Positions 2,513-17,232 are shown, counted from the first letter of the stretch. The stretch is 18,549 nt of DNA from Patescibacteria group bacterium (GCA_018813025.1 JAHJCL010000013.1:1-18549), one strand, 5' to 3'. The notes: generated by a model not told the origin, from the sequence alone. Numbers and translations: made by a program.

Positions 2513-3799
2513 TTAATTTTCTTGTTCTTCTTTTGTGTTTTTTTCTTTTGTTTTTTTAGGTTTGGCTGGTTTTTTAGTTTTAACTGACTTCTTAACTTTT
2601 TTTTCTTCTGATATTTCTGATGTTTCTGTTTTTTCTTCTGTTTTTTCTCCTACTTCTTCCTGGGTTTCATCTCCAGTTTCTTTTTGTTCTTGGCCTCTGA
2701 CATCTATTTTCCAACCAGTAAGTTTAGCAGCTAATCTTACATTTTGACCATCTTTACCAATAGCTAAAGACAGTTGATCTTCAGGGACAATACAAACAAC
2801 TTTATTTTTAGGCATTAACTCCACTTCTAAAACTTTAGCTGGTGATAAGGAGTTAGAAATAAATTTAGCCGGATCATCAGACCACTCAATAATGTCTATT
2901 TTTTCTCCCCCTAATTCATTAATGATTGCCTGAACTCTTGTTCCCCGCTGGCCAACAGATGCTCCGATAGGATCAATTCCTTCAGTATTTGAGGTCACGG
3001 CAATTTTAGTACGAGAACCGGCTTCTCTGGCAATAGCCTTGATTTCAACCTGTCCATCAGCTATTTCCGGGACTTCTAATTCAAATAATTTGGAAATTAA
3101 TTTAGGATAAGCTCTAGACAGAAAAACTCTTGGCCCTTTAGGGGTATCTTCTACCTGGATAACGAAAACCTTTAATCTCTGACCGGGTCTGTAAAACTCT
3201 CCGGCTACCTGCTCTTCTTTGGGCAATACTCCTAATGTCTTGCCAATATCTAGAAAAATATTTCTACCTTCAATTCTTTGCACAATACCCGATAAAATTT
3301 CACCTTCCTTATCTTTATATTCACTTAAAACATTTTCTCTTTCTGCCTCTCTTAATTTTTGCATTATAACCTGCTTAGCAGTTTGAGCGGCGATTCGTCC
3401 GTAATCTTCTTTAGATTCCAAAAATGTTTCTAATTCTTCACCAACTTTAATTTTTTCATCAATCTTTTTAGCTTCATCAAGCATAATATGTTTTTCCGGA
3501 TTAAATTTAACTTTTTTGCCGTCAGCTTCATCTTCTTCCTTGTTTTTGTCTTTCAAATCTTCTATTTCTTCTTCTGAATAGAGAGAATCTTGATCAACTA
3601 CTATTTTGACTTGCCAAAACTTAACTGCACCTGACTGCGTATCAAGTTTAGCTTTAATAATCTGTCCTTTTTCCCCGTAGTCTTTTTTATAAGCAGCGGC
3701 TATTGCTTGTTCAATTGTTTCAAAAACCTTTTCAGCGGAAATTCCTTTTTCCTCTGAAATTTGATGAACCGCTGATATAAAATCTCTTATTTCAATCAT
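2513..3799 (-). CDS. nusA: Transcription termination/antitermination factor NusA
   Basis: 428 aa with bacterial architecture: N-terminal domain (ISEEKGIS...AYKKDYG), S1 domain (GIVQRIEGRNIFLDIGK), and KH1/KH2 (GASVGQRGTRVQAIINELGGEKIDII; SLAIGKDGQNVRLAAKLTGWKIDV). It also has an acidic insertion in the NTD and a K/E-rich C-terminal tail. Confidence 0.93.
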   Translation of the reverse strand: MIEIRDFISAVHQISEEKGISAEKVFETIEQAIAAAYKKDYGEKGQIIKAKLDTQSGAVKFWQVKIVVDQDSLYSEEEIEDLKDKNKEEDEADGKKVKFNPEKHIMLDEAKKIDEKIKVGEELETFLESKEDYGRIAAQTAKQVIMQKLREAERENVLSEYKDKEGEILSGIVQRIEGRNIFLDIGKTLGVLPKEEQVAGEFYRPGQRLKVFVIQVEDTPKGPRVFLSRAYPKLISKLFELEVPEIADGQVEIKAIAREAGSRTKIAVTSNTEGIDPIGASVGQRGTRVQAIINELGGEKIDIIEWSDDPAKFISNSLSPAKVLEVELMPKNKVVCIVPEDQLSLAIGKDGQNVRLAAKLTGWKIDVRGQEQKETGDETQEEVGEKTEEKTETSEISEEKKVKKSVKTKKPAKPKKTKEKNTKEEQEN

Positions 3800-3832
3800 A
3801 ATTTTTTAATTTTAATTTTCGAACGAAGTGAG

Positions 3833-3875
3833 AAAACAAGGTTCTGAGGAGCGAAGCGACGAATGGTTCTTATTT
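3833..3875. repeat. Intergenic motif copy B (upstream of nusA start)
   Basis: Shares a 13-nt block and an 11-nt block, both perfectly identical, with 2473-2510. It lies between the plsY terminator hairpin and the nusA ATG. Confidence 0.5.
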
Positions 3876-3894
3876 GAAAAATTTAATTATTTCT

Positions 3895-3920
3895 GCAAAA
3901 AGTCCGTTTTAAAACGGACT
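3895..3920 (-). terminator. Rho-independent terminator after the plsY/GGGPS/GGPPS operon
   Basis: Perfect 20-nt palindrome agtccgttttaaaacggact (3901-3920), giving an 8-bp stem and a 4-nt loop. On the minus strand it is followed by TTTTGCAG. It lies 22 nt downstream of the plsY stop. Confidence 0.65.
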
Positions 3921-3941
3921 GTTATGTAATAATAACAGAAG

Positions 3942-4601
3942 TTAATTCTTTGTCAATTTTTTTACTATCCTTTTAATTCTCCAGTCCTTGTAAAAATCGT
4001 CGTCAAAAATTAAACGATTTAATAAAACTTTTCTTCTTACTGCCGGATCTTTTAATTCTTTAATTGGGCTAAGGCGTTTTAAAAAAATCGGCAATAAAGA
4101 TAATTGGACTAATTGACCCACTGAATTTGATAAACCGAATTTATTACCCCAATAAAAGACTAAAACCAGCATAACAATAGTTCCAATAGATAAATTCCAA
4201 ATAATTCCTAATAAAAGGAAGGGAATTAAACTAAATTTAAAAACAACCGGCGAAAAAGCATATAAAGCACCGCCGAAAGTTCCTATTCCTCGGCCTCCGT
4301 TAAATTTTAAAAATAAAGACCAATTGTGGCCGACAACAGCTGCCACTCCGCATAATACCTGTATTGAATCCGGCTGACCATAATACTGAGCTAATCTGAC
4401 AGCCAGATATCCTTTTAAAATATCTAAAAGACCGGTTAAAGCTCCTTGCCAAATACCTATATTTTTAAAAACATTTGAACCAGATGTTTTCCTCCAACCA
4501 ATTTCCAATATGTCCTTTTGAACTGAAAGTTTAGTTATAATATGACCAGACGGAAAAGAGCCTAAAAGATAAGATAAAATAATGAAAAAAATATTTAACA
4601 T
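3942..4601 (-). CDS. plsY: PlsY-family glycerol-3-phosphate acyltransferase (acyl-phosphate dependent), divergent copy 1
   Basis: 219 aa, multi-TM. Matching elements: N-terminus ILSYLLGSFPSGHII, LLDILKG, and GHNWSLFLKFNGGRGIGT (compare GHxxPxxxxFxGGKGxAT). The glycine-rich GSGNxGATN loop is degenerate (GWRKTSGSNVFKN). Confidence 0.8.
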   Translation of the reverse strand: MLNIFFIILSYLLGSFPSGHIITKLSVQKDILEIGWRKTSGSNVFKNIGIWQGALTGLLDILKGYLAVRLAQYYGQPDSIQVLCGVAAVVGHNWSLFLKFNGGRGIGTFGGALYAFSPVVFKFSLIPFLLLGIIWNLSIGTIVMLVLVFYWGNKFGLSNSVGQLVQLSLLPIFLKRLSPIKELKDPAVRRKVLLNRLIFDDDFYKDWRIKRIVKKLTKN

Positions 4602-4635
4602 AATGATTTGAAGATAATAAATATTGAAATTAGTA

Positions 4636-5430
4636 TTATCTAATTAATCCTTTTTCTATTTTTTCTTTGCCTTTTTGTTTGATAATTTTTACAAACTCTT
4701 TAACTAATGCTTTTACATCTTTAGTTTCTTCAGCGGCTGTACCAATAGATAAACAATCAGCTCCGGCCGCAACAACTTTACCGGCTTGTTCAGGAGTTCT
4801 AATTCCTCCACCAACAATATAAATAGCATCTATTGCTTTTCTGACAGTTGTTATCATCTCCAAAGGAATGTGATCAAAAGCAGCTGAGCCGGCATCGGTA
4901 AAGACCATTCTTCTACCAGCAAGCTGGGCTGAAAGAGCTAAAGCAGCTGCGAGTTTCGGCCTATTTCTGGGAACTAAATTGGCATCACCAACCCAGCCAG
5001 CAGTTCCTCCTGGTTCAACTAAAATATAACCTGTGGGCAAAGCTTCTATGCCCATTTTTTTAATCATCGGCGCTGACAGCATTTGAGCTTGAGAAATCCA
5101 ATAAGGATTTCTGGAATTCAATAAACTCATAAAAAACACAGCGTCGGCTGATGCCGAAATTGTAGCAATGTTTCCGGGAAATAAAACAATAGGAACATCT
5201 GTTTCTTTCTTAATTCCCTTAATCACTGAATCTAATAACTCGCCCTGCGCTCCAGTACTGCCACCAACCCCCAGAATATCAGTGCCGGCTTCAACTGCTA
5301 ATAAAGCTGTTTCAATAGCTTTTTGGGGCGTGGAATAATCACAGGGATCAATTAAAATAGATAGAATTGCTCCGTCCTTTTGAACCCTATCATTAATATA
5401 TTTTTCAACTTTTCCTATTAATGGAATCAT
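4636..5430 (-). CDS. Geranylgeranylglyceryl phosphate synthase (GGGPS/PcrB family)
   Basis: 264 aa with TIM-barrel GGGPS/PcrB hallmarks: ILIDP, DILGVGGS, PIVLFPGN, YILVEPGG, IVGGGIRTPEQA. The ATG at 5430 overlaps the upstream GGPPS stop (ATGA). Confidence 0.88.
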   Translation of the reverse strand: MIPLIGKVEKYINDRVQKDGAILSILIDPCDYSTPQKAIETALLAVEAGTDILGVGGSTGAQGELLDSVIKGIKKETDVPIVLFPGNIATISASADAVFFMSLLNSRNPYWISQAQMLSAPMIKKMGIEALPTGYILVEPGGTAGWVGDANLVPRNRPKLAAALALSAQLAGRRMVFTDAGSAAFDHIPLEMITTVRKAIDAIYIVGGGIRTPEQAGKVVAAGADCLSIGTAAEETKDVKALVKEFVKIIKQKGKEKIEKGLIR

Positions 5431-6524
5431 ATTTTTCTTGTAATTAAAAAATTAACGAATTCTTCCAACCTTTTTTTAGCCGGAGATTCAGGTAAAAGTT
5501 TCTCGGCTTCCTGCCAAGCATCTCCCATAATTTCTTTAGCTTTAGTTTGAGCATATTCCACACTGCCATATTTTTTAATTATAGCTATGGCTTCTTCTTT
5601 CTCTTTTATATCATCGGTATGCTTGTCCAATATTCCTATTAATCTGGCTTTATCTTCATCACTGGCTTTCTTTAGAGTATGAATTACCATTAAAGTTCTT
5701 TTACCTTCTTTAATATCATTGCCGAACACTTTACCGAATTTATCTCTTTCTTCTCCTTCAGAAATTATATCTAAAATATCGTCCTGAATTTGAAAGGCAA
5801 CTCCCATTGTCTCAGCTACTCTTCCAGCTGCCTCAACCACTTGATCGCTGCCACCGGATAGAATAACTGCTAATTTAGCCGACATTCTAGAGAGACAACC
5901 TGTTTTGTAAGCACACATTTGCAAATATTCATCTTCTTCAATATTAACTGCCTTACCATTGTGCCAAAAAATATCCGTGCCTTGACCAAGATGAATATTA
6001 ATCATCTCTTGCGCATAAGTTTCATAAGCTTTCTGTAAAATAACACAAGTAAAATTATCTTTGTTCTTGATTAAAGCCAGTAGTGGATAAAAATACATAA
6101 AATTCCCTGCATTAATAGCAACGTCAACACCAAAAACCTTATGAAGACATGGCTCATTTCTTCTTAATTCTCCCATATCTTCAATGTCGTCAACGATAAT
6201 ACTTCCGTTGTGAATTATTTCCGGAATCATTACAATATCTTGGACTTTTTCCAAATCACCTCCAACAGCTTCAACAATTAGTAAAAATAAAACTGGTCGC
6301 CATCTTTTACCACCCCTATCTATAAAATTCCAAATTGGTTTCATGAATACCGCATCGGCCGCGTCCGGACTATAAGTATAACGAGGGTCGCCGAAAACAA
6401 ACTTTAGCCACTCTTGCGTGGCTTTTCTGGGAAGATATTTCTCAATAATTTTATCTATCTCCGGTTTTTTTGATTCTAGATACTCGATAAATTCTTTTGA
6501 CTTACTGTCTTGATTATCAGGCAT
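5427..6524 (-). CDS. Polyprenyl (geranylgeranyl) diphosphate synthase
   Basis: 365 aa trans-isoprenyl diphosphate synthase. First Asp-rich motif: IVDDIEDMGELRRNEP. Second: FQIQDDILD. It also has GKRWRP and GNDIKEGKRT. The HNGSIIVDDIED / INAGNFMYF context resembles type III GGPP synthases. Confidence 0.85.
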   Translation of the reverse strand: MPDNQDSKSKEFIEYLESKKPEIDKIIEKYLPRKATQEWLKFVFGDPRYTYSPDAADAVFMKPIWNFIDRGGKRWRPVLFLLIVEAVGGDLEKVQDIVMIPEIIHNGSIIVDDIEDMGELRRNEPCLHKVFGVDVAINAGNFMYFYPLLALIKNKDNFTCVILQKAYETYAQEMINIHLGQGTDIFWHNGKAVNIEEDEYLQMCAYKTGCLSRMSAKLAVILSGGSDQVVEAAGRVAETMGVAFQIQDDILDIISEGEERDKFGKVFGNDIKEGKRTLMVIHTLKKASDEDKARLIGILDKHTDDIKEKEEAIAIIKKYGSVEYAQTKAKEIMGDAWQEAEKLLPESPAKKRLEEFVNFLITRKI

Positions 6525-6545
6525 AATAAATTTTGAACTATTAAT

Positions 6546-6565
6546 AGTATATTATATAGTATACT
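6546..6565. promoter_or_regulatory. Near-palindrome in the divergent GGPPS/DGGGPS promoter region (candidate operator)
   Basis: agtatattatatagtatact matches its own reverse complement at 18 of 20 positions. It contains TAGTATA twice and sits in the 103-nt divergent intergenic region. The AT-rich background makes chance occurrence plausible. Confidence 0.25.
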
Positions 6566-6627
6566 GGTTATTGTTCTAAGAGAAAAGATAGCTTGTATTT
6601 TTAGCTATTTTGTCTATTATTGAGCTT

Positions 6628-7422
6628 ATGAATCCTTATCTTGAGATTATTCGTCCGCAAACATCATTAATAGCCGGATTAGGAGCAGTAGTGGGTACTA
6701 TTATTGCCGGTGCCCCATTTTGTACTGCTTCTTTATATATTTTCTTAACTGTTTTCCTTATGACCGGAGCCGGTATGGTAATCAATGATTATTATGATTT
6801 GGAAATAGATAAAATTAATGCTCCTCATAGACCATTACCCAGTCAAAGAATGTTACCCAGGACAGCTTTTGGCTACGGATTATTTTTATTCATTTCCAGT
6901 CTTGTTTTTGGAACTTTCACTAATGTTTATTGTTTTGCTTTAGCTCTTTTCAACAGCTTAATTGAATTCTTTTACGCCAAAACATTTAAAAAATGGTGGC
7001 TGTTGGGAAATATTATGGTCAGTTGGTTAGCTGGCTCTGTTTTTTTGTTCGGCGCTATGGTCACCTTTGATTTCAGATTAGTGGGAATTTTGTCCGGACT
7101 GGCTTTTTTAGCCAATATGGGCAGAGAAATTTTCAAAACCATTGAAGATGTTAAAGGAGATCGGGCAATGAATTTGGATACGCTTCCCATCGGTTCGGGA
7201 ATCAAAAATGCCAAAGAAATAGCACGAGGATTTATTTGTTTGGCAATTATCCTTTCTCCTATTCCTTATTTATCCGGACTTTTAAAAAGTACTTACCTAC
7301 AAATTGTTTTAATCAGCGACTTAATTTTTTTCTACTCTCTTTTTCAATCTCCCACTAAGGCTAAAAATTTAGCCAAAATTGCTATGTTTATAGTTCTTTT
7401 AGCAATTTTAGTCAGCTTCTAA
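6628..7422 (+). CDS. UbiA-family prenyltransferase, digeranylgeranylglyceryl phosphate synthase-like
   Basis: About 8 predicted TM segments. UbiA Asp-rich motif: NDYYDLEIDKINAPHRPLPS. Second motif region: KTIEDVKGD. ATG at 6628 gives MNPYLEIIRPQ, typical of the family. The ORF track's alternative TTG start is at 6610. Confidence 0.85.
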   Translation: MNPYLEIIRPQTSLIAGLGAVVGTIIAGAPFCTASLYIFLTVFLMTGAGMVINDYYDLEIDKINAPHRPLPSQRMLPRTAFGYGLFLFISSLVFGTFTNVYCFALALFNSLIEFFYAKTFKKWWLLGNIMVSWLAGSVFLFGAMVTFDFRLVGILSGLAFLANMGREIFKTIEDVKGDRAMNLDTLPIGSGIKNAKEIARGFICLAIILSPIPYLSGLLKSTYLQIVLISDLIFFYSLFQSPTKAKNLAKIAMFIVLLAILVSF

Positions 7423-7428
7423 ATGAAA

Positions 7429-8550
7429 TTATCCAAAACTGGTTCCACTTCTCTGAAGGATTGAAAACAACTTGAATAATTGCCAAGCTCGACTTCTTAA
7501 TTTCGACTTAGAAAAAAACTTAACGAGTCCGGACAAATTCTTCAAATCCAGAGGATTTTTGTTTTCTGAAATATCAGCAATCTCATTCAAAACTGAATTG
7601 GGCAAACTGTACAAAACTTTTTGAGCATACATTAGGTCTTCACTGAAATAGGACATTGATTTTAATTTCTTTTCAAAGAGATGACTGGAATTATTAAGAA
7701 TTGCTTCAGTCGCCAATCTTCCTGAAATCATCGCGTTGTTTATTCCTCCGCCTAAAACCGGGTCAATCAAGGCTCCGGCATCACCAACCAAAAAAACATT
7801 ATCTTTGAATAATTTAATCCTCATTCCGCCATAAGTAATTAATCCGCTCTTATTAGTCAAAAGTTTGTAATTGCCGAATTCAGGAACAACGGTCGTGTCC
7901 ATAAAATATTTAAATCTTTTATCTAACTCTTTATACCCACCCAAACCAATATTAGCTGTATGTTTTGATTTAGGAAAAATCCAAACATATCCATCAGGGT
8001 ATTTCTCTTTATCAAAATATAATCTTATCGTTGATATTAGTACCTCTTTTTCAAGTTCAACTAAATATTCGTAAGTCGGTAAAATCCCGAATTTGCCTCC
8101 AAAGAGCTTAGTTCTGGTTACTGAAAGGGGACCATCAGCGCCAATAATATATTGAGCTCTGTAAATGTCTCCTTTTTCGGTATAGACTGCCCAGCAGTCT
8201 TTTTCCCTTTTTAAATCAACTACTTTGCTTTCTAATTTTATTTCTGCCTGACACTGCGTTGCTAAAAACTTCTCGAAAGCAACCCTATCTAAAACATAAC
8301 CGGCGTCTTGGCCCGGCAAAATAATTTTTTTACCTGAAGGAACAATTACCTCAATATTTTGAATAAACGTAGAAATCCAAGCAGGGTCAGGGGTGATTCC
8401 CTGTATTGATAAAGCTATCTGACTTAAACCCTCGCCACACTGGACTGGTTTACCAATTTCTTTCTTCTTGTCCAGAATTAAAGAATTATCCAAATACTTA
8501 CCGGCAATCAACCCCGCTGGACCGGCTCCAATAATAATCGTCTTAAACAT
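7429..8550 (-). CDS. FAD-dependent geranylgeranyl reductase (digeranylgeranylglycerophospholipid reductase-like)
   Basis: 373 aa. Motifs: N-terminal IIIGAGPAGLIAG dinucleotide fold, YVWIFPK, and GDAGALIDPVLGGGINNAMISG. The start overlaps the plsY copy 2 stop by 8 nt (ATGTTTAA). Confidence 0.85.
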   Translation of the reverse strand: MFKTIIIGAGPAGLIAGKYLDNSLILDKKKEIGKPVQCGEGLSQIALSIQGITPDPAWISTFIQNIEVIVPSGKKIILPGQDAGYVLDRVAFEKFLATQCQAEIKLESKVVDLKREKDCWAVYTEKGDIYRAQYIIGADGPLSVTRTKLFGGKFGILPTYEYLVELEKEVLISTIRLYFDKEKYPDGYVWIFPKSKHTANIGLGGYKELDKRFKYFMDTTVVPEFGNYKLLTNKSGLITYGGMRIKLFKDNVFLVGDAGALIDPVLGGGINNAMISGRLATEAILNNSSHLFEKKLKSMSYFSEDLMYAQKVLYSLPNSVLNEIADISENKNPLDLKNLSGLVKFFSKSKLRSRAWQLFKLFSILQRSGTSFG

Positions 8551-9208
8551 TATTTTGATTTTTTGTTTTTATATTTTTTATACCTCTATAATACCATTTA
8601 GGTATTTCACCTTTAAGAGCTGGAATAACACTTGGCCACTGTTTAATGAAAATTGGAATCGCCATTAAAAGACAAACCAAAAAATAATTGGGAGATAATG
8701 AATAACCAATTAAAGGCAGAAGAAAATTACCCATGAACTGGCCGAAGAAAAAACTTTGAGTAGCTAAAATAAAAACAATAGCCATAGCCGCCCAAGGTAA
8801 AAGCAACCAATTGAAATCTAAAACCCACAATATTCCGATTAAAGAGGCTTGTGCTTTGCCTCCAGAAAGTTTACCATCCTTAATTTTGAAATAAATAGAA
8901 AAACAATGCCCTAGAACTACTCCGAATCCGGCTATGGTCATAACTAAAATTTGATTGTACCCGAGGTAAGAAAAATATTTCGCAATTAATACAGGGAGAG
9001 CTCCTTTGGAGGCATCAATAAAAGTTGTGATTAGAAAAAGTAATGGTTTGTCGGTAACTCGCATTACGTTTAAAGCACCTACATTTTTGGTTTCTTCTTC
9101 CCTAATATCTTTATTTGAATATTTCTTTACAATCAAATAGGCGGTTGGAAAAGAACCTAAAAAATAAGATGAGACGAAGAACAAAATCGAATAAATTATA
9201 TTGTTCAT
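8543..9208 (-). CDS. plsY: PlsY-family acyltransferase, divergent copy 2
   Basis: Multi-TM. Matching elements: YFLGSFPTAYL, NVGALNVMR (partial GSGNxGATNVxR), FIDASKG, and GHCFSIYFKIKDGKLSGGKAQAS (GGKG motif with an insertion). ATG at 9208 is preferred. The ORF track's start at 9220 is a TTG. Confidence 0.8.
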   Translation of the reverse strand: MNNIIYSILFFVSSYFLGSFPTAYLIVKKYSNKDIREEETKNVGALNVMRVTDKPLLFLITTFIDASKGALPVLIAKYFSYLGYNQILVMTIAGFGVVLGHCFSIYFKIKDGKLSGGKAQASLIGILWVLDFNWLLLPWAAMAIVFILATQSFFFGQFMGNFLLPLIGYSLSPNYFLVCLLMAIPIFIKQWPSVIPALKGEIPKWYYRGIKNIKTKNQNNV

Positions 9209-9216
9209 TTCTTTAA

Positions 9217-10917
9217 TCAATAATTTCCATCTATTATATCCCAGGAAGCGATTAAACTTCCACTGACAATACTTTGGTCAAAAACTGAAGCTATAGAATT
9301 GATGAAAGAAACTTCAGCTTTTATTTCTTTCAATCTTTTTTTCAAAGATTCTGCCTGTTCAATATTATTTTTATGAGCAATAACTACTCTGATCTTTTGA
9401 CCATTTTGTCTTGATTTTTTAGTTTGCTTTTTAATTTCTATAAAAATTGCTTCTGATGCGTCTTGGGCTCTAAAACAAGAACTAATCCTAACCCATTGGC
9501 CTCTTCTGAGTCCAACCAACGGCTTAAAACCAATACTTTGCCATCTTTTAGCCCATTTTATAATAGGACTCCTGATAAAATTGTCTTGTTCTACTTTGGC
9601 TAAAAGTGGCAAAAATAGATAGGTCTGAATTTCCCGAGCTTTTTTATCAAGAATTTTAATAATCTCTCTTATTTCCCTCTGTTCTTTAATTAATCCAATG
9701 GCTTTTAAAATTAATAAACCCTGACCCGAACTGATATTTAAAGAATCAAAAACATAAACCCTGTAGGGGTCAACGAGTTTTAAGCGAAACTCCATGGCTT
9801 TTTGATAATTCAAATTAAATTTAGAAGAGCTGACAATAATCAACAATCTTTTAAATTTTTCTAACTGTTGATTGCAAACACTGATAAAATCATCCGGATC
9901 AGACAAAGAAGAAATAACTTTAATATAGTACCTCTCAATAATCTTATCAGTCAAATTTGAACTATTATCAGTAATGATACCAATTGAAAAATTACGCAAT
10001 GACTCTTCTCCGGCTGATTCTCTCGCCATATCTTCAACTCTCATCTCCTTGATTTCTCCAGCTGATCTAATAATTTCTTTTGCTTCTTCAATAGTGTCAG
10101 TATGAATATGAACTTTCATTCGATTACCAAAACTTACAACATCTAAACTATTACCGAATCGACTTAATTTTTCTTTAATGACCTTTTCAGTCATTTTCGG
10201 GTTTTCTATTAAAGCAACTATTTCATAGCGATTAGAAATGGTTTGAATAAATCTCCTAACCTCTTCTGACGGTCTGTCCATAATAATTTTAACTTTTTCT
10301 TCCTGAACTCCGTCTAAAGCATCAAGATAGCTTTCTAAAATGATTAAGAAACCCATCCCGCCGGCATCAACGACATTGGCCTTTTTTAATAACTCCATCT
10401 GGTTCTGCGTTTCTACTAAAGCTTTTTTAGCTTCTTGAATTGCTGTTTGAAACAAAATAATAATATCTTTTTCGGTTGAAACTCCTTGTTCAAAAGATTG
10501 AGCGGTTGCTTCAATCACATCTAAAATAGTTCCTTTTTTCGGGGACTGAATGCTATCTCTGGCCCTTTGATAACCTTTTCGAAAATACTCGGCCAGTTGC
10601 TGCGGTCCGACAGAATTTTCTTTTCCTAAAGAAGAAAAAAATCCAGCTAAAAAACCGGTATAAATAATACCGGCATTACCCTGGGCGGTGGTCATTGCCC
10701 CAGTTAAAATGGCATTAGAAATATCGTTTAAACTATTAAAATTTTTATTTTGAATTTCACTTCGAATCCCAGCCAGAGTCTTAGCTAAATTAGTCCCTGT
10801 GTCTTGATCGGGTACCGGGAAAACATTGATTTTATTTATCTCCTCCTTATCTCTTTCAACTCGTTCATAGGATAGAAGCATCATTTTCTTTAATTCCTTG
10901 GGAGTCAAATAGTCCAT
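9217..10917 (-). CDS. fakA: Fatty acid kinase FakA-like protein (DAK2/DhaL domain plus DegV-like C-terminal domain)
   Basis: 566 aa. The N-terminal DAK2 signature is INVFPVPDQDTGTNLAKT. The C-terminal ~250 aa align by eye with the stand-alone DegV ORF at 14540-15421: IGIITDNSSNLTDKIIERY vs IGLIVDEGADLTPEIIEKY, VFDSLNISSGQGLLILKA vs IIDSLSAVCGEGLLALKA, and GQKIRVVIAH vs GKKIKVFISH. Confidence 0.8.
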   Translation of the reverse strand: MDYLTPKELKKMMLLSYERVERDKEEINKINVFPVPDQDTGTNLAKTLAGIRSEIQNKNFNSLNDISNAILTGAMTTAQGNAGIIYTGFLAGFFSSLGKENSVGPQQLAEYFRKGYQRARDSIQSPKKGTILDVIEATAQSFEQGVSTEKDIIILFQTAIQEAKKALVETQNQMELLKKANVVDAGGMGFLIILESYLDALDGVQEEKVKIIMDRPSEEVRRFIQTISNRYEIVALIENPKMTEKVIKEKLSRFGNSLDVVSFGNRMKVHIHTDTIEEAKEIIRSAGEIKEMRVEDMARESAGEESLRNFSIGIITDNSSNLTDKIIERYYIKVISSLSDPDDFISVCNQQLEKFKRLLIIVSSSKFNLNYQKAMEFRLKLVDPYRVYVFDSLNISSGQGLLILKAIGLIKEQREIREIIKILDKKAREIQTYLFLPLLAKVEQDNFIRSPIIKWAKRWQSIGFKPLVGLRRGQWVRISSCFRAQDASEAIFIEIKKQTKKSRQNGQKIRVVIAHKNNIEQAESLKKRLKEIKAEVSFINSIASVFDQSIVSGSLIASWDIIDGNY

Positions 10918-10925
10918 AGTTTAAA

Positions 10926-11588
10926 TTAGCGAATTTTTTCCTCGAATTCTTTCAAAATTTTAGTGGCTATGTCTTTTCCGCCAAGACCGAAGGCAATACC
11001 CACGGCTATAACTATTGTTCCGATAAAACCGATAAAAATAGTCATAATAAGGTCTGGTGCAATTTGAAGTTGGTAGAGAATTGCCAATATTGATAAACTC
11101 CAAATTATCCAGCGAATAATCCGACCTAAAAAACGGGAATAAGTAATTTTTTCTTTTTCCAAAACAGCAATCATTATTTTCTGGGAGAAATCAGAGATAA
11201 AAACCGCGGTAATAAAAATTAAAGAAGCAATAAAAATGTTAGGGAAATAGGCAATAGCTTGAGCTAAAAGTTGACTAAATTGAAGTAAACCGATAATCTC
11301 GGCCGATGCCATTAAAAAAAGAAGGGTTACAAAACAGCTGGTGATACGACCGAAAAATTTAGGAACATTAAAATAGGTATCGGAAGTCATTAATCTTTCT
11401 TCCAAATCCATTCTTTTAATGGCCTGTCCTAATTGAATTTTTTCTAAAAAACGGCTGACTAAGTTGCCAACCCATTTTGAGACAAAAAGACCGATAATAA
11501 AAATCCAAATTGCCCAAATAAGGTTGGGTAGGTTTTCAACGAAACTCTCTAAAAATAATTGTAAAAAACTTTCTGAAGTAATTAACAT
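10926..11588 (-). CDS. Integral membrane protein of unknown function (about 5 TM, MscS-N-terminal/'TM helix repeat'-like)
   Basis: 220 aa with five hydrophobic segments and a short charged C-terminus (KILKEFEEKIR). It is wedged between carS (20-nt gap) and fakA (8-nt gap). I recognised no catalytic motif. Confidence 0.6.
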   Translation of the reverse strand: MLITSESFLQLFLESFVENLPNLIWAIWIFIIGLFVSKWVGNLVSRFLEKIQLGQAIKRMDLEERLMTSDTYFNVPKFFGRITSCFVTLLFLMASAEIIGLLQFSQLLAQAIAYFPNIFIASLIFITAVFISDFSQKIMIAVLEKEKITYSRFLGRIIRWIIWSLSILAILYQLQIAPDLIMTIFIGFIGTIVIAVGIAFGLGGKDIATKILKEFEEKIR

Positions 11589-11608
11589 ATCATTTAATTA
11601 ATTTTATC

Positions 11609-12178
11609 TTACCATTGGCTCTTAGACAAGCCTAATTTATAGCCAATTTGAGTGGCGCCAACGTGTAGAATAAAAGTTAAGACAAAAAGAACTAACCAGA
11701 CAGATAAATTAATTTGAATTTTAGAAAAAACAAACAGAAAGAGAGCCGCACCAAGAACATAATTAATTTGGTCAAAAGGAACAAACTTCGCTCCCGGTTT
11801 TAAATCTAAACGCCTTTTAATAAAAGCGAAGAATAAATCGCCGAAAATTGCTCCGAGGGTCATTGATAAAGCAAAATTCCAGATATTGATATTGGAATAA
11901 TTTATAATACTGATGCTTTGCATTAACGGACAATTAATGAAAAGCCATTTTTGATAAAAAATAATCATTATTCCGATTGACGAACCTACAATTATACCTC
12001 TCCAAGTTTTATGATCTCCCAACAAGGGTTTGCCCATAAATTGTTTACCTGCGTCAATTGGTTTAGCTAAAAATTTAAATATCCCTAGAGTAGCTGACAA
12101 TGAAGGAGTCATATTTGTCAAATAAGCGGGAAAAAAGAAATAGAAACAAGGTAGGATTAGATTAACAAAATTATCCAT
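11609..12178 (-). CDS. carS: CDP-archaeol synthase (CarS, DUF46 family; CDP-2,3-bis-O-geranylgeranyl-sn-glycerol synthase)
   Basis: 189 aa, 5-TM. CarS family signatures are present: PIDAGKQFMGKPLLGDHKTWRG, GAIFGDLFFAFIKRR, VPFDQINY, and a C-terminal ...LSKSQW. The size matches archaeal CarS. Confidence 0.85.
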   Translation of the reverse strand: MDNFVNLILPCFYFFFPAYLTNMTPSLSATLGIFKFLAKPIDAGKQFMGKPLLGDHKTWRGIIVGSSIGIMIIFYQKWLFINCPLMQSISIINYSNINIWNFALSMTLGAIFGDLFFAFIKRRLDLKPGAKFVPFDQINYVLGAALFLFVFSKIQINLSVWLVLFVLTFILHVGATQIGYKLGLSKSQW

Positions 12179-12221
12179 TTCAAAAATTGATTATTAGTTA
12201 TTTTAGATGTAAAATTATCCA

Positions 12222-12884
12222 ATGAAAGCTGACTTGCACGTTCATACTAATTATTCTTACGATAGCATATCTTCTCCGCAGGAAATAGTCAAAGCAGCTC
12301 TTCAAAAAGGGCTTGACTGTATTGCTATTTGCGACCATGGAGAAATAAATGGAGCAATTGAAGCAATTAAAGCGGCCTTTGACAAGCCGATTCTGGTTAT
12401 CCCGGGAATTGAGATAAAAAGCCAAGAAGGCGATATTTTGGGTTTAAATGTTAAAACAATAATTCCTAACGGACTTTCAGTCTTGGAAACAATTTTAGAA
12501 ATTAAAAAAGCTGGTGGACTGGTGGTGATACCGCATCCATTCGGACTTTGCTGTTCTTTTGACGGTAATTTAAAAAATATCATTGAACATATTGATGCTA
12601 TAGAAGTTTTAAACGCCAATATTTTTAAGAATAATAACCAAAAAGCTCTATCTTTGGCTAAGGAACATAATTTTGCAATAACCGCTGGTTCTGATGCTCA
12701 CAGCTCAATGTTTGTTGGTGAAGCCTTTTTAGAAATTCCGGGAGAAAAATTATCAATCAGCCAGATATTCGAACAAATTAAGAATAAAAGATGTAAGCCA
12801 TCAGGAAAAGAAACCAATATCTTTTTAAAAGGAATTGCTTTCTTACAGAGAAGTTGGGCAAAAATAAAGTATTACACAAAATAA
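12222..12884 (+). CDS. PHP-domain metal-dependent phosphoesterase
   Basis: 220 aa. PHP motifs: DLHVHTNYSYDS, ICDHG, VVIPHPF, EVLN, GSDAHS. It is divergent from carS (43-nt gap) and lies 6 nt upstream of the CDP-alcohol phosphatidyltransferase. Confidence 0.85.
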   Translation: MKADLHVHTNYSYDSISSPQEIVKAALQKGLDCIAICDHGEINGAIEAIKAAFDKPILVIPGIEIKSQEGDILGLNVKTIIPNGLSVLETILEIKKAGGLVVIPHPFGLCCSFDGNLKNIIEHIDAIEVLNANIFKNNNQKALSLAKEHNFAITAGSDAHSSMFVGEAFLEIPGEKLSISQIFEQIKNKRCKPSGKETNIFLKGIAFLQRSWAKIKYYTK

Positions 12885-12890
12885 CAACCC

Positions 12891-13487
12891 ATGTTATCAG
12901 AAAAAAGAGAACAATTTAAAAAATTAGAAGCAATAGTCGGTGATTTTTTTTCTAAGTTTTTGACTGCTAATCAATATTCTGGTTTAGCCATTTTAATGGC
13001 TTTGTTTTTTTTAAAATTTATTATTTCCGGCAATCTCAAAGTTGCTTTAATTTTTTTAATAACAACTTCTTTTTTAGATTTTGTTGATGGTGCTGTGGCG
13101 CGCAAAACCAACACTGCTTCCAATAAAGGAGCTTATTTGGATACAATTTTAGACCGCTATGTTGAGGCAATCGTTTTGTTCAGTTTCTTATTTCTACCCT
13201 TACCTAAACTATTGTTTCCCAGTTATGTCTGGATTTTATTTACCCTACTCGGTTCTTTTATGACCACTTATGCTAAAGCAGCTGGAAAAGAAAAAGAAAT
13301 ATTAAAAACCGAATTAAAAAAGGGGTTGATTGGCCGGGGAGAAAGAATGATTTTAGAATCTTTAGCCATATTATTCGGTATCTTTAATTTTAATTGGACG
13401 CTATTTTGTATTATTATTTTAGCTATTCTGTCTAACATCACTGCTTTTCAAAGAATTTACCTTGTTTTGAATAATGAAAATATTTAA
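12891..13487 (+). CDS. CDP-alcohol phosphatidyltransferase (archaetidyl/phosphatidyl head-group transferase; head group undetermined)
   Basis: 198 aa, multi-TM. It has an exact D-G-x2-A-R-x8-G-x3-D-x3-D signature: DFVDGAVARKTNTASNKGAYLDTILD. Confidence 0.9.
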   Translation: MLSEKREQFKKLEAIVGDFFSKFLTANQYSGLAILMALFFLKFIISGNLKVALIFLITTSFLDFVDGAVARKTNTASNKGAYLDTILDRYVEAIVLFSFLFLPLPKLLFPSYVWILFTLLGSFMTTYAKAAGKEKEILKTELKKGLIGRGERMILESLAILFGIFNFNWTLFCIIILAILSNITAFQRIYLVLNNENI

Positions 13488-14496
13488 TATTTCAGGACTC
13501 AAAAAAACTTATAGTCTTCTCAGGAAAACTTCTCGAATACAAGGACCTGATATCGATCAAAAATTAATAGACCAGATAATGTATAGTTTTGAGGCACTGC
13601 CACCATTTGGCAAAGAATACTGGTGGTTTCTTTTTTTAGATAATGATGGACCAAAACCAATTCAACTAATGTTAATGATTTGTCGAAAATATGGCAAAGA
13701 AATGTGGATTGATGATACTAAGATGACACTGAAAGATTTAGGGAAAGATGGAATAAAATCAGCTGTAACCGGCTGGCTTTACGATGGAAACAAGATGATC
13801 AACCTGGGCAACACCAATGGAATTGTCAAAATAACTGATAAAAAAATTATTACTGAAATTGCCGGCAATAAATTGATTTTTGAAGGCAGTTTTCCTTTTT
13901 ATAAATTGACAGTGGGTGATATTATTGATTTAAACATCAGTCACGAAAATACTTTAGTCAAAAGAAACAAAGAAGCTTACGGCATTTTCTGGCCACCATT
14001 CGGAGTCGGTTATTTTAATCTTTATCCCGATGTTTCCGGAACTATTTTTGGAAAAACATTTCAAGGAACCGGCCATTTACAAAAAGTTGTCGGTATCGCT
14101 CCTCACTTTCCTTATAACTGGGTCAGAATAATTTTTAAAAACGGATCTATGTTAAGGTTTTCCGATATTCGGCCTAAAAAAATACATGTTGAGAGATCGA
14201 TAGATTTTTATGATAATAATGAAAATAAAATTATTAAATTCAGCAAACCGAGTTTAAAAATATCTCGATCTGACAATTCTTTAATCTGGACATTGGAAGG
14301 ACAGGACAAAAACAATTACGCTAAAGTTGTTTTGGAAGCCTACGCTAAAAAACAATTTGTTATGAAAGGCGGAGGATCATTAACTTATGTTGAGTATTGT
14401 GTTATTCCTAAAGAATTGATTTTAAAAATTAAAGAAAAAACCATCACCTTAAATGATTTAGGTGATGGTGTGGGAACTTTAGAAGACGCCTATTAA
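13474..14496 (+). CDS. Hypothetical soluble protein, function unknown (weak tocopherol-cyclase/CrtC-like pattern, unverified)
   Basis: 340-aa ORF whose start overlaps the preceding transferase gene by 14 nt. No TM segment or signal peptide. The composition is rich in W, F, Y and G and looks beta-rich. Patches GKEYWWFLFL, GIAPHFPYNWVRIIF and C-terminal GVGTLEDAY recall lipocalin-like isoprenoid cyclase/hydratase families, but only from memory. Confidence 0.7.
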   Translation: MKIFNISGLKKTYSLLRKTSRIQGPDIDQKLIDQIMYSFEALPPFGKEYWWFLFLDNDGPKPIQLMLMICRKYGKEMWIDDTKMTLKDLGKDGIKSAVTGWLYDGNKMINLGNTNGIVKITDKKIITEIAGNKLIFEGSFPFYKLTVGDIIDLNISHENTLVKRNKEAYGIFWPPFGVGYFNLYPDVSGTIFGKTFQGTGHLQKVVGIAPHFPYNWVRIIFKNGSMLRFSDIRPKKIHVERSIDFYDNNENKIIKFSKPSLKISRSDNSLIWTLEGQDKNNYAKVVLEAYAKKQFVMKGGGSLTYVEYCVIPKELILKIKEKTITLNDLGDGVGTLEDAY

Positions 14497-14515
14497 AATT
14501 AATAGGATTATTAAC

Positions 14516-14535
14516 AATTAGCAAGCTTGCTTATT
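14516..14535. terminator. Possible weak bidirectional terminator hairpin between convergent genes
   Basis: aattagcaagcttgcttatt contains a perfect 12-nt palindrome agcaagcttgct (14520-14531) extended by imperfect AT pairs. It sits centrally in the 43-nt convergent gap. There is no clear U-tract. Confidence 0.3.
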
Positions 14536-14539
14536 AATA

Positions 14540-15421
14540 TTATTCGGCATACCAAGCAAGACCGATAAGTCCCGGGCCAGCGATGCTTCCAACGACATAA
14601 TCAGCTAAAGAAATTAAAACAACTTCTGTATTGTCTAAATTTTCTTTAATTAACTTTCCTAATTTTTCAGCTCCTTCTAAATTAATAATATGAGAGATAA
14701 AAACTTTAATCTTCTTTCCTTCTTGGCGAGGTTTTTTTGTTTTAGACTCAAGTTCTTTAAACAAAGCTTCAGGCACATCCTTAACTCCAGTTTTAACTCC
14801 AATTGGCTTAAGTACGCCTTCTTTAAATCCTAAAATTGGCCTAACGCCAAAATTAGCTGCTTTTCTAATCCAACTGGCTACCATCGGAGAAATACGGCCG
14901 GCATGTTCCAACCATTTAGGATCTTCGAGAATCGCATAAAGATGAATTCTAGATGGCATTTCTTTTAATTCTTTAACAATCATTTCAATATCGTTTCCGT
15001 TATTGATCAATTCAGCGGCTTTTAAGGCTAAAAGTCCCTCACCGCAGACTGCACTTAGAGAATCTATAATAAAAACATTGTTTTTCTGCTCTTCAGGCAG
15101 AAAACTAATTGCTTGAATTGCTGAGTTGTATGTCCCTGATAGTTTAGAGGTAACGGTAGTGCAGATGATCTTATCAAATTTTTCTAATTGCGCTTTAAAA
15201 ATATCTAAAAAATCTTTAGGCGATGGTTGGGATGTTTTACAGAATATTTTTACCCCTCTTTTATCTGCTTCTCGCATTTTGTGAAAAATACTTTCGCCAG
15301 GTAATTCCATTATTTCCGACGGCCACTCTACTTTTAAAGGAACAACTGCAATCTGATATTTCTCTATTATTTCTGGGGTCAAATCAGCCCCCTCATCAAC
15401 TATTAATCCAATTTTATTCAT
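14540..15421 (-). CDS. DegV family fatty-acid-binding protein (FakB-like)
   Basis: 293 aa. DegV hallmarks: N-terminal KIGLIVDEGADL, KTSQPSP, TVTSKLSGTYNSA, IIDSLSAVCGEG, and the C-terminal ISHIINLEGAEKL. Confidence 0.9.
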   Translation of the reverse strand: MNKIGLIVDEGADLTPEIIEKYQIAVVPLKVEWPSEIMELPGESIFHKMREADKRGVKIFCKTSQPSPKDFLDIFKAQLEKFDKIICTTVTSKLSGTYNSAIQAISFLPEEQKNNVFIIDSLSAVCGEGLLALKAAELINNGNDIEMIVKELKEMPSRIHLYAILEDPKWLEHAGRISPMVASWIRKAANFGVRPILGFKEGVLKPIGVKTGVKDVPEALFKELESKTKKPRQEGKKIKVFISHIINLEGAEKLGKLIKENLDNTEVVLISLADYVVGSIAGPGLIGLAWYAE

Positions 15422-15426
15422 ATTTT

Positions 15427-15454
15427 ATTGGTTAATTATTATTGGTTAATTATT
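15427..15454. repeat. Perfect 14-nt tandem duplication (attggttaattatt x2)
   Basis: Read directly: 15427-15440 equals 15441-15454. It lies in the 47-nt gap between the tRNA-Ala 3' end and the degV ATG. Confidence 0.9.
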
Positions 15455-15468
15455 AATTTTTTATAAAG

Positions 15469-15542
15469 TGGTGGACCCAGGGAGAATCGAACTCCCATTT
15501 CCACAATGCGAATGTGGCGTCTTGCCATTGGACTATAGGCCC
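15469..15542 (-). tRNA. tRNA-Ala (anticodon CGC), CCA encoded
   Basis: The hand-folded minus-strand sequence is GGGCCTA-TA-GTCC-AATGGCA-AGAC-G-CCACA-TTCGCAT-TGTGG-AAAT-GGGAG-TTCGATT-CTCCC-TGGGTCC-A-CCA. It has a 7-bp acceptor stem with the G3:U70 Ala identity pair and a canonical T-loop. Confidence 0.9.
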
Positions 15543-15543
15543 G

Positions 15544-15616
15544 TCAGGGTGGAGAGATTCGCACTCTCGATCTCCGGCACCCGAGGCCGGCGTCTTAACT
15601 ACTGGACTACACCCTG
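15544..15616 (-). tRNA. tRNA-Pro (anticodon CGG), no encoded CCA
   Basis: The hand-folded sequence is CAGGGTG-TA-GTCC-AGTAGTTA-AGAC-G-CCGGC-CTCGGGT-GCCGG-AGATC-GAGAG-TGCGAAT-CTCTC-CACCCTG-A. C1:G72 and A73 are bacterial Pro features. The D-loop (AG instead of GG) and T-loop (TGC instead of TTC) are atypical. Confidence 0.8.
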
Positions 15617-15698
15617 TAGTAATAAATTTCTAAATCCGAAATCCTCATTTCTAAACAAATTCCAAAATATCTAAGTAAGGTAATAATTTATTACCGGA

Positions 15699-17165: not shown

Positions 17166-17232
17166 AACTTTATTTTAAACCGAAATTTTTCTTTTTTCAA
17201 TTTACTTGTTAAAATATCTGAATAATAATCAA

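Follow-up and report, generated by a model that had tools for sequence, protein, structure and literature searches.

The stretch of DNA analyzed here (the window) comprises 18,549 nucleotides (nt) from a Patescibacteria group bacterium (GCA_018813025.1 JAHJCL010000013.1:1-18549), and its positions 3,942 to 14,496 carry a cluster of genes for archaeal-type isoprenoid ether phospholipids embedded among bacterial genes. The best explanation for this locus is that it represents the membrane-lipid gene island of a small Patescibacteria family, and it appears probable on balance that the products of the cluster are diether lipids of the archaetidylinositol type, built from salvaged precursors beside a truncated acyl route. 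Judging from trees and sequence identities, the island is a mosaic. Its geranylgeranylglyceryl phosphate synthase (GGGPS) and head-group transferase are DPANN-like, its prenyl synthase belongs to a type also seen in two Aenigmatarchaeota-like genomes, its digeranylgeranylglyceryl phosphate synthase (DGGGPS) is archaeal, and its CarS-like gene is native to Patescibacteria. The window is contig C35 in its entirety, from a genome of 542 kb spread over 40 contigs (G000; 95.7% complete, 0.17% contamination), and was compared with four other near-complete genomes of the same family (G001 to G004), whose members bear record titles of Parcubacteria or Patescibacteria group bacteria. Gene calls were derived from a listing of open reading frames (ORFs) and from Pfam and NCBIfam profile scans of the window proteins, and every enzymatic step of the proposed route was assigned by homology.

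The first-pass annotation of this DNA had placed six archaeal-type lipid genes within the cluster, and their positions, motifs, and families were borne out by the ORF listing and the profile scans. The lipid genes and the genes between them are laid out as follows.

3942-4601, minus strand: PlsY-like paralogue 1 (PlsY1; PF02660, 105.6 bits)
4636-5430, minus strand: group II GGGPS (NF003198 and TIGR01769, both over cut-off)
5427-6524, minus strand: short-chain trans-prenyl diphosphate synthase, probably a geranylgeranyl diphosphate (GGPP) synthase (PF00348, 227 bits)
6610-7422, plus strand: putative UbiA-family DGGGPS (NF009521, 253 bits; likely start ATG at 6628, residue 7)
7429-8550, minus strand: geranylgeranyl reductase (GGR) family flavoprotein (TIGR02032, PF22578)
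8543-9220, minus strand: PlsY-like paralogue 2 (PlsY2; PF02660, 108 bits)
9217-10917, minus strand: FakA, fatty acid kinase subunit (PF02734, Dak2; PF21645, FakA middle; PF02645, DegV-like)
10926-11588, minus strand: membrane protein of 220 amino acids (PF05552 mechanosensitive channel conserved transmembrane helix, two stretches)
11609-12178, minus strand: CarS-like CTP:lipid-phosphate cytidylyltransferase of the CDP-archaeol synthase family (PF01864, 100.7 bits)
12222-12884, plus strand: PHP-domain metal-dependent phosphoesterase (PF02811, PF13263; NF038032, 84 bits; cut-off, 80)
12891-13487, plus strand: CDP-alcohol phosphatidyltransferase (PF01066, 59 bits; best model, archaetidylinositol phosphate synthase)
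13474-14496, plus strand: protein of 340 amino acids without family (no Pfam or NCBIfam match over threshold)
14540-15421, minus strand: DegV/FakB fatty-acid-binding protein (PF02645, 180 bits)

The window GGGPS is predicted to be of the group II archaeal type. Profile scores were 174 bits for PF01884, 300 bits for NF003198 (cut-off, 247), and 205 bits for TIGR01769 (cut-off, 161.6), and among solved enzymes the protein scored 248 bits against that of Methanothermobacter (4mm1), to which it aligns almost gap-free over residues 7-248, 130 bits against that of Flavobacterium (4jej), and 36 bits against Bacillus PcrB, with 28 bits for the heptaprenyl model NF003197; membership in the heptaprenyl PcrB clade, raised in the first-pass annotation as an outcome that would refute the pathway, is thereby removed. 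Within Patescibacteria, GGGPS is nearly unique to this family: it was present in all five other family genomes and in two of 55 other families sampled in the order, and PF01884 was found in one of 401 sampled Patescibacteria (G000 itself), apart from one marginal match. The nearest non-bacterial sequences belong to Aenigmatarchaeota (61-64% identity), followed by Micrarchaeota (54-61%) and Methanobacteria (∼50%). In a maximum-likelihood tree, eight bacterial sequences formed one clade (Shimodaira-Hasegawa-like approximate likelihood ratio test [SH-aLRT] support, 98) that joined Aenigmatarchaeota (98), and the joint group lay within a DPANN clade (100). An approximately unbiased (AU) test did not reject a tree keeping all DPANN-type GGGPS together with the bacteria outside (p = 0.248; log-likelihood difference, 15.4), and nesting beside Aenigmatarchaeota is therefore the best tree rather than proof of a donor; the safe statement is that the GGGPS is, by sequence, of DPANN type and most like that of Aenigmatarchaeota. 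From its distribution, we infer that GGGPS moved from archaea into bacteria, and since GGGPS is not clustered with other lipid genes in the archaeal relatives, the cluster would have come together within the bacteria. G020, a genome from another family of the same order, has a highly divergent GGGPS (38% identity, on a long branch) adjoining a DGGGPS-like gene (L013 = G020:C40:1-4953), and the prenyl synthase of that genome is 66% identical to that of the window; this GGGPS may reflect a separate acquisition or rapid divergence.

The two aspartate-rich motifs of the prenyl synthase, DDIED and DDILD, lie at residues 112 and 248, and its best NCBIfam models are IdsA and GGPP_syn, with all equivalog models below cut-off; its best structural match is the GGPP synthase 1wy0 (166 bits), followed by the GGPP synthases 5jfq and human 2q80. 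Its earlier designation as a GGPP synthase holds as far as motifs and nearest enzymes go, and the product is likely to be C20, which is not certain, with chains longer than C20 possible. It falls in a clade (support, 99) with enzymes of two Aenigmatarchaeota-like genomes (51-52% identity) and two other Patescibacteria, apart from other archaeal enzymes, and because these two other Patescibacteria carry the same type, transfer may have run in either direction. The UbiA protein carries NDYYDLEIDKIN at residue 59 (NDxxDxxxD) and a second D...D match (DVKGD) at residue 180; models for chlorophyll, heme, and quinone prenyltransferases scored at most 84 bits, and among structures the M. jannaschii DGGGPS (6m31) scored 158 bits and chlorophyll synthase 44 bits, while no quinone prenyltransferase structure matched at E ≤ 0.001. 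A quinone-type assignment, considered beforehand as an alternative, is thus disfavored by the closeness to the DGGGPS models and 6m31, and the protein is most readily taken as a divergent member of the DGGGPS family. The family's DGGGPS clade sits on weakly supported branches among archaeal sequences, which do not single out a donor; the best pairwise match comes from an Aenigmatarchaeota genome (45%), and the gene is putatively archaeal. The GGR passed TIGR02032 (166 bits; cut-off, 158.8), contains the PF22578 catalytic domain and GxGxxG at residue 8, and best matched the digeranylgeranylglycerophospholipid reductase of Thermoplasma among solved proteins (3oz2, 109 bits); no panel archaeon exceeded 37% identity, and no donor could be named. 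Three further GGR-family paralogues reside in G000, giving four GGR-like genes in 542 kb: G000:C5:375-1355 (L264; 326 amino acids) and G000:C19:18882-19880 (L266:1383-2381; 332 amino acids) scored 146 and 150 bits, respectively, for TIGR02032, just below cut-off, and G000:C17:38-904 was found by similarity to the cluster GGR only.

The CarS-like protein covers PF01864 in full length (profile positions 1-175) and holds the GDxKT and GDxxxxFxKRR segments, which align to Aeropyrum CarS (5guf, 43 bits). Its membership in the CarS family, as first proposed for the archaeal-type set of six genes, is upheld, but its archaeal provenance is not: the CarS tree splits into Archaea and Patescibacteria (SH-aLRT, 98), with the window family's protein nested among the bacterial ones, and on this placement the gene is classed as native to the phylum rather than an archaeal import. 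PF01864 was detected in 73 of 401 sampled Patescibacteria, nearly all of them without GGGPS, and among CarS-like-bearing Patescibacteria none of the 20 tested had DGGGPS and none of 35 had CdsA. In several other lineages, the CarS-like gene has nusG on one side and rplK on the other, with a CDP-alcohol transferase gene coming next; CarS-like loci of other Patescibacteria were collected as L030-L049 (e.g., L032:919-3193, L045:896-3187, and L046:327-2614). Because this clade occurs in Patescibacteria without DGGGPS, it must act there on something that is not DGGGP (digeranylgeranylglyceryl phosphate), which suggests a phylum-wide CarS-like cytidylyltransferase with a non-archaeal substrate.

Regarding the head group, the transferase shows an exact DGx2ARx8Gx3Dx3D from residue 66 and scored 125.6 bits for NF040950 (archaetidylinositol phosphate synthase), compared with 72 bits for the next model (PIP synthase). 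Its clade lies within an Aenigmatarchaeota group (supports 95, 92, and 84; identity, 40-47%), and its orthologues adjoin inositol-phosphate synthase in G032, G458, G459, G460, and G464, several of which are Aenigmatarchaeota-like. Inositol-phosphate synthase was found in 5/5 family genomes, in G020, G032, and G458, and in 7/7 Aenigmatarchaeota-like genomes; it is present in every adequately complete GGGPS-bearing Patescibacteria genome and in only 2 of the 33 other Patescibacteria searched. This distribution and adjacency support inositol-1-phosphate as the probable acceptor of the transferase. The neighborhood of the PHP gene recurs elsewhere: in G290, an unrelated genome of Patescibacteria, the order is CDP-alcohol transferase, PHP, CarS, and in G461, an archaeon, PHP adjoins CarS. 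From its adjacency to these genes, the PHP protein is proposed as an archaetidylinositol phosphate phosphatase and is thus a candidate for the conversion of archaetidylinositol phosphate to archaetidylinositol. In the Aenigmatarchaeota-like loci G464:C2:517473-520814, G461 (L142), and G463:C3:202973-205230, CarS, an inositol-type transferase, and inositol-phosphate synthase lie close together, with a PHP protein in one; part of this CarS/transferase/inositol-phosphate synthase module may be ancestral to the archaeal side.

Adjoining genes had been described as concerned with fatty acid utilization; FakA, FakB, and PlsY are indeed there, but they are themselves phospholipid-synthesis genes. For TIGR00023 (cut-off, 137), PlsY1, whose first PlsY motif is degenerate, scored 106 bits and PlsY2 88 bits, both below cut-off, and both are kept in G001-G004, PlsY1 holding its place. 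A third, canonical PlsY lies outside the cluster (G000:C19:22906-23490; L266:5407-5991) with 135.6 bits. Within a panel of 50 genomes, PlsY was confined to the window's family, with two to three copies per member; searches of 24 other Patescibacteria, of G020, G032, and G458, and of 16 DPANN archaea yielded none. Family searches were carried out across G000-G004, each with positive controls in reference genomes, and detected neither PlsC (PF01553) nor CdsA, the sole CTP_transf_1 (PF01148) match in these genomes being CarS itself. The acyl branch of FakA/FakB and PlsY would therefore end at lysophosphatidate, unless a divergent PlsY acylates again or acylates geranylgeranylglyceryl phosphate (GGGP). 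With PlsC and CdsA both missing, the isoprenoid diether route is left as the one complete pathway to a two-chain phospholipid, and with the Fak and PlsY genes counted as lipid genes, the locus would constitute the whole lipid toolkit of the organism.

This toolkit is tightly packed. Overlaps amount to 4 nt between GGGPS and prenyl synthase, 8 nt between GGR and PlsY2, and 4 nt between PlsY2 and FakA, and given such packing, CarS, the membrane protein, FakA, PlsY2, and GGR are read as one operon, which mixes genes of the isoprenoid and acyl routes; sharing of operons by the two routes makes a mixed or hybrid membrane a real possibility. PlsY1 is situated 35 nt downstream of GGGPS, and the PHP gene 6 nt upstream of the transferase, both of the latter diverging from CarS. 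The whole series of genes from NusA to the CCA-adding enzyme is kept in G001-G004 at 50-78% amino acid identity, and as this order recurs in four relatives, the arrangement is not due to chance. The membrane protein of 220 amino acids stands between FakA and CarS in all four relatives (63-73% identity), and the ORF of 340 amino acids is not fixed in the cluster: G001 and G002 do not have it at this place, and in G003 it lies at another site.

To assess precursor supply, the searches were extended to the rest of the genome. The absence of a sn-glycerol-1-phosphate (G1P) dehydrogenase (EgsA/AraM; PF13685) from the window, already pointed out in the first-pass annotation, applies equally to the remainder of the 542-kb, 95.7% complete genome and to G001-G005, G020, and G032, and G458 gave a 37-bit hit only; the profile detected the enzyme in 13 of 14 reference genomes used as controls. 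Glycerol kinase, hydroxymethylglutaryl coenzyme A (HMG-CoA) reductase, and IspH were not found in G000-G004, nor was GpsA in G000, where alone it was searched. A clear G1P dehydrogenase was likewise missing from six of the seven Aenigmatarchaeota-like genomes with the nearest GGGPS, so backbone salvage may be a trait that the window's family has in common with these archaea. An operon at G000:C40:4377-7190 (L019) encodes mevalonate kinase (206 bits), (phospho)mevalonate decarboxylase (309 bits), and an archaeal-type isopentenyl-phosphate kinase (229 bits), all over cut-offs, and type 2 isopentenyl diphosphate (IPP) isomerase was found in G001-G004 (392 bits in G002) and not in G000 by tblastn with the G002 protein. 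Moreover, an HMG-CoA-synthase-like gene (141 bits, below cut-off) adjoins inositol-3-phosphate synthase on G000:C30 (L267:1550-2641 and 3227-4387). The gene pattern looks like mevalonate or isopentenyl-phosphate salvage, and precursor supply probably depends on salvage.

Taken together, a route can be proposed in which the prenyl synthase would form GGPP from IPP, GGGPS would ether-link GGPP to glycerol phosphate to yield GGGP, and DGGGPS would attach the second chain to give DGGGP. The CarS-like enzyme would then activate this product with CTP to CDP-archaeol, and the CDP-alcohol transferase would join it to myo-inositol-1-phosphate, supplied by the organism's own inositol-phosphate synthase, producing archaetidylinositol phosphate, from which the adjacent PHP phosphoesterase probably takes off the phosphate to leave archaetidylinositol; saturation of the chains would fall to GGR. 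These operons also contain FakA, FakB, and the PlsY paralogues, whose products would turn scavenged fatty acids into acyl-glycerol-phosphate. Glycerol phosphate would be imported or arise from an unrecognized enzyme, and the backbone could therefore have either chirality. Tentatively, and as a possibility that could well prove wrong, the family's membrane may consist mainly of archaeal-type isoprenoid diether inositol phospholipids, perhaps mixed or hybridized with acyl chains through the two divergent PlsY proteins, with a pathway built from DPANN-archaeal genes and the phylum-native CarS-like gene and run on salvaged mevalonate and glycerol phosphate.

The simplest way to dismiss this proposal would be contamination in binning or assembly from a co-living DPANN archaeon, in favor of which it may be said that the closest GGGPS come from DPANN archaea sharing these habitats and that small genomes of such kind are alike in G+C content. 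Yet a single contig has the archaeal-type genes interspersed among bacterial ones, G+C content stays flat over the cluster (0.30-0.37), and the archaeal relatives do not show clustering of these genes. In a scan of 185,579 species genomes, the GGGPS holders were metagenome-assembled genomes (MAGs) from unrelated projects (Parcubacteria bacterium DG_74_3; the isolates MEGAHIT-group-1.395, DeMMO5_22, KR13_S3.mb.32, and AUK254; and a further MAG labeled Saccharibacteria), and the same gene order recurs in MAGs of unrelated projects. Near-identical DNA was also recovered from groundwater and biofilm metagenomes of six studies: single contigs in two runs cover 5096-10156 (GGGPS to FakA) and 10211-17168 (FakA to the CCA-adding enzyme), thus joining both gene types, contigs of an independent study bridge GGR-PlsY2-FakA as well as the PHP gene and the transferase, and one metatranscriptome contains 64% of sampled words from a slightly different strain. 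A chimeric assembly, against which the first-pass annotation had warned, is excluded by the synteny in independent MAGs and the bridging contigs, and contamination is scarcely conceivable and refuted for practical purposes.

Two biological alternatives to archaetidylinositol-type membrane lipids deserve more attention. The genes might be functional yet make a minor or specialized prenyl-glycerol lipid (an anchor, or a lipid for signaling or host interaction), like heptaprenylglyceryl phosphate in Bacillus, with the bulk membrane coming from host lipids. Such a role would suit the failure to find a glycerol-phosphate source or a complete mevalonate pathway, and the presence of FakA, FakB, and PlsY in three copies speaks for extensive reliance on fatty acid scavenging; it is nevertheless unlikely, given that the set extends to second prenyl transfer, CDP activation, a head-group transferase, synthesis of the head-group precursor, and a saturating reductase, that is, the full route to a bilayer-forming phospholipid, well beyond PcrB, and that no other complete two-chain phospholipid route is encoded. 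The two routes might also meet, giving hybrid or non-canonical products such as ether lipids based on sn-glycerol-3-phosphate (G3P) or mixed acyl/prenyl lipids, in which divergent PlsY proteins would acylate GGGP or lysophosphatidate and the CarS-like enzyme would activate the resulting lipid phosphate. According to its title, PMC13400652 reports acceptance of both stereo-forms of glycerol phosphate by PlsY and PlsC, in line with such a meeting. The conserved joining of the overlapping FakA, PlsY2, and GGR genes to CarS in one operon and the placing of PlsY1 just after GGGPS, the restriction of multicopy PlsY to this family with both cluster copies divergent, the operation of the CarS-like clade without DGGGP in other Patescibacteria, and the missing G1P dehydrogenase all point the same way. 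Set against this, the GGGPS is nearly gap-free to the group II enzyme of Methanothermobacter, archaeal GGGPS enzymes use G1P, and the PlsY paralogues may simply be redundant; we consider a meeting of the routes quite improbable.

Several observations also weigh against the diether route as proposed. The scores of DGGGPS for NF009521 (253 bits; equivalog cut-off, 296), of CarS for NF003114 (131.5 bits; cut-off, 148), and of the transferase for NF040950 (cut-off, 180) all fall below the NCBIfam equivalog cut-offs, and these proteins are therefore divergent members of their families. The prenyl synthase has Gly at position -5 of the first aspartate-rich motif, not an aromatic residue as in many C20 enzymes. 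Use of DGGGP by the window CarS-like enzyme is assumed, while the native substrate of its clade elsewhere cannot be DGGGP. Furthermore, no source of either G1P or G3P was found in the five genomes (the GpsA search covered G000 only), and mevalonate genes have a patchy distribution, with GHMP kinases in G000 and G001 only, isopentenyl-phosphate kinase in G000, G002, and G003 only, and IPP isomerase missing from G000. As for the metatranscriptome, the run consists of contigs assembled from an RNA library, in which DNA may also be present, and the match is a hint of expression only, placing the sequence in an RNA library rather than showing it to be transcribed.

Compared with the canonical archaeal diether pathway of methanogens and Archaeoglobus, every enzyme family after glycerol-phosphate formation is present in the window, and solved archaeal enzymes (4mm1, 6m31, 5guf, 3oz2, and 1wy0) are the best structural matches of the window proteins. 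The window differs in its bacterial host, in the lack of a G1P dehydrogenase, in a CarS of the Patescibacteria clade, in the clustering of genes that are dispersed in archaeal relatives, and in the presence of FakA, FakB, and PlsY in shared operons. Bacillus PcrB belongs to the same TIM-barrel family (PF01884) and makes a single-chain C35 product; the window GGGPS scores far lower against it and the heptaprenyl model than against the group II model. The likeness to DPANN archaea (Aenigmatarchaeota and Micrarchaeota) lies in the nearest GGGPS, transferase, and, in two genomes, prenyl synthase, in the frequent want of a clear G1P dehydrogenase among Aenigmatarchaeota-like genomes, and in CarS, PHP, transferase, and inositol-phosphate synthase genes being neighbors in some; the differences are that those archaea have an archaeal CarS, no PlsY was found in them, and GGGPS stands apart from their other lipid genes.

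Among bacteria, members of the FCB group, including Ca. Cloacimonetes, possess GGGPS and DGGGPS and have been proposed to form archaeal-type or mixed membranes (PMC7852524; PMC6431249). Cloacimonetes have no CarS but retain the bacterial CdsA and phosphatidylglycerophosphate synthase, proposed to carry out CDP activation and head-group transfer in its stead, and the affinities of their GGGPS are with TACK archaea (PMC7852524). In contrast, the window family combines the CarS-like enzyme with inositol-phosphate synthase and the inositol-phosphate transferase, searches of it detected neither PlsC nor CdsA, and its GGGPS is of DPANN type, scoring lower against 4jej than against the methanogen enzyme. 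An engineered E. coli with a hybrid heterochiral membrane (PMC5889666) is likewise a bacterium with an ether-lipid route beside an acyl route; it differs in being artificial, in having an added G1P dehydrogenase, and in keeping its complete native pathway. All enzymes of the window come from known families, and what is new is the full pathway and its context. The statement that the set is not a characterized system stands in that respect, but a GGGPS and DGGGPS pair in one Parcubacteria genome had already been reported in PMC7852524, whose supplements name neither DG_74 nor LJNG. Full-text searches, which did not cover all journals, turned up no account of the pathway as a whole, of its association with Fak and PlsY genes, of an absence of PlsC and CdsA, of an affinity to DPANN, or of CarS-like genes being widespread in Patescibacteria. 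Where "archaeol" matched in papers on Patescibacteria, it was part of a species name (e.g., "archaeolyticus") and did not refer to lipids, and these matches were discarded.

Models of early cell evolution and of eukaryote origin turn on the divide that separates the ether/isoprenoid/G1P lipids of archaea from the ester/acyl/G3P lipids of bacteria. The natural bacteria proposed earlier for archaeal-type lipids (the FCB group) kept the full bacterial pathway and had no CarS, whereas the lineage described here packs an archaeal-type route together with fatty acid salvage genes, apparently assembled partly by transfer between DPANN and Patescibacteria, two ultra-small radiations. If the proposal is true, this would be a natural bacterium largely across the lipid divide, and the CarS-like enzymes common in Patescibacteria would be general lipid-phosphate cytidylyltransferases replacing CdsA. 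The island thus offers a cloneable test case for bacterial life with archaeal or mixed membranes, for backbone chirality without G1P dehydrogenase, and for the substrate of CarS-like enzymes in Patescibacteria, and it matters for how archaeol-type biomarkers from groundwater and sediments are interpreted.

The surroundings of the island are bacterial, as originally described (ClpP, trigger factor, DHH/DHHA2 phosphatase, NusA, and CCA-adding enzyme, together with FakA, DegV, and the two PlsY-like genes); of the tRNA genes, tRNA-Pro had been recognized and the abutting tRNA-Ala(CGC) missed, ARAGORN finding both. The remaining features of the window are the following.

8-595: ClpP, bacterial flank on the lower-coordinate side
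608-1486: trigger factor, same flank
1483-2421: DHH/DHHA2 phosphatase, same flank
2513-3799, minus strand: NusA (NusA_N, S1, and KH domains), same flank, syntenic in relatives
15469-15616, minus strand: tRNA-Ala(CGC) and tRNA-Pro(CGG), no spacer between them (ARAGORN)
15699-17165, minus strand: CCA-adding enzyme (PolyA_pol head, RNA-binding, and HD domains), higher-coordinate flank, syntenic in relatives
17206-18549, plus strand: 3'-open ORF, pilin-like (type IV secretion pilin domain, divergent InlB B-repeat)

Promoter and terminator scans over 3800-15700 were uninformative, with 51 promoter-like sites compared with 43 expected. The G+C content rises to 0.41 at the window end holding the 17206-18549 ORF. 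In addition, an imperfect short direct repeat at 2495-2526 and 3860-3891 flanks nusA, and contigs of several runs show joints around this gene, between ∼2473-2511 and 3809-3872, a pattern suggestive of variation among strains or of a minor rearrangement.

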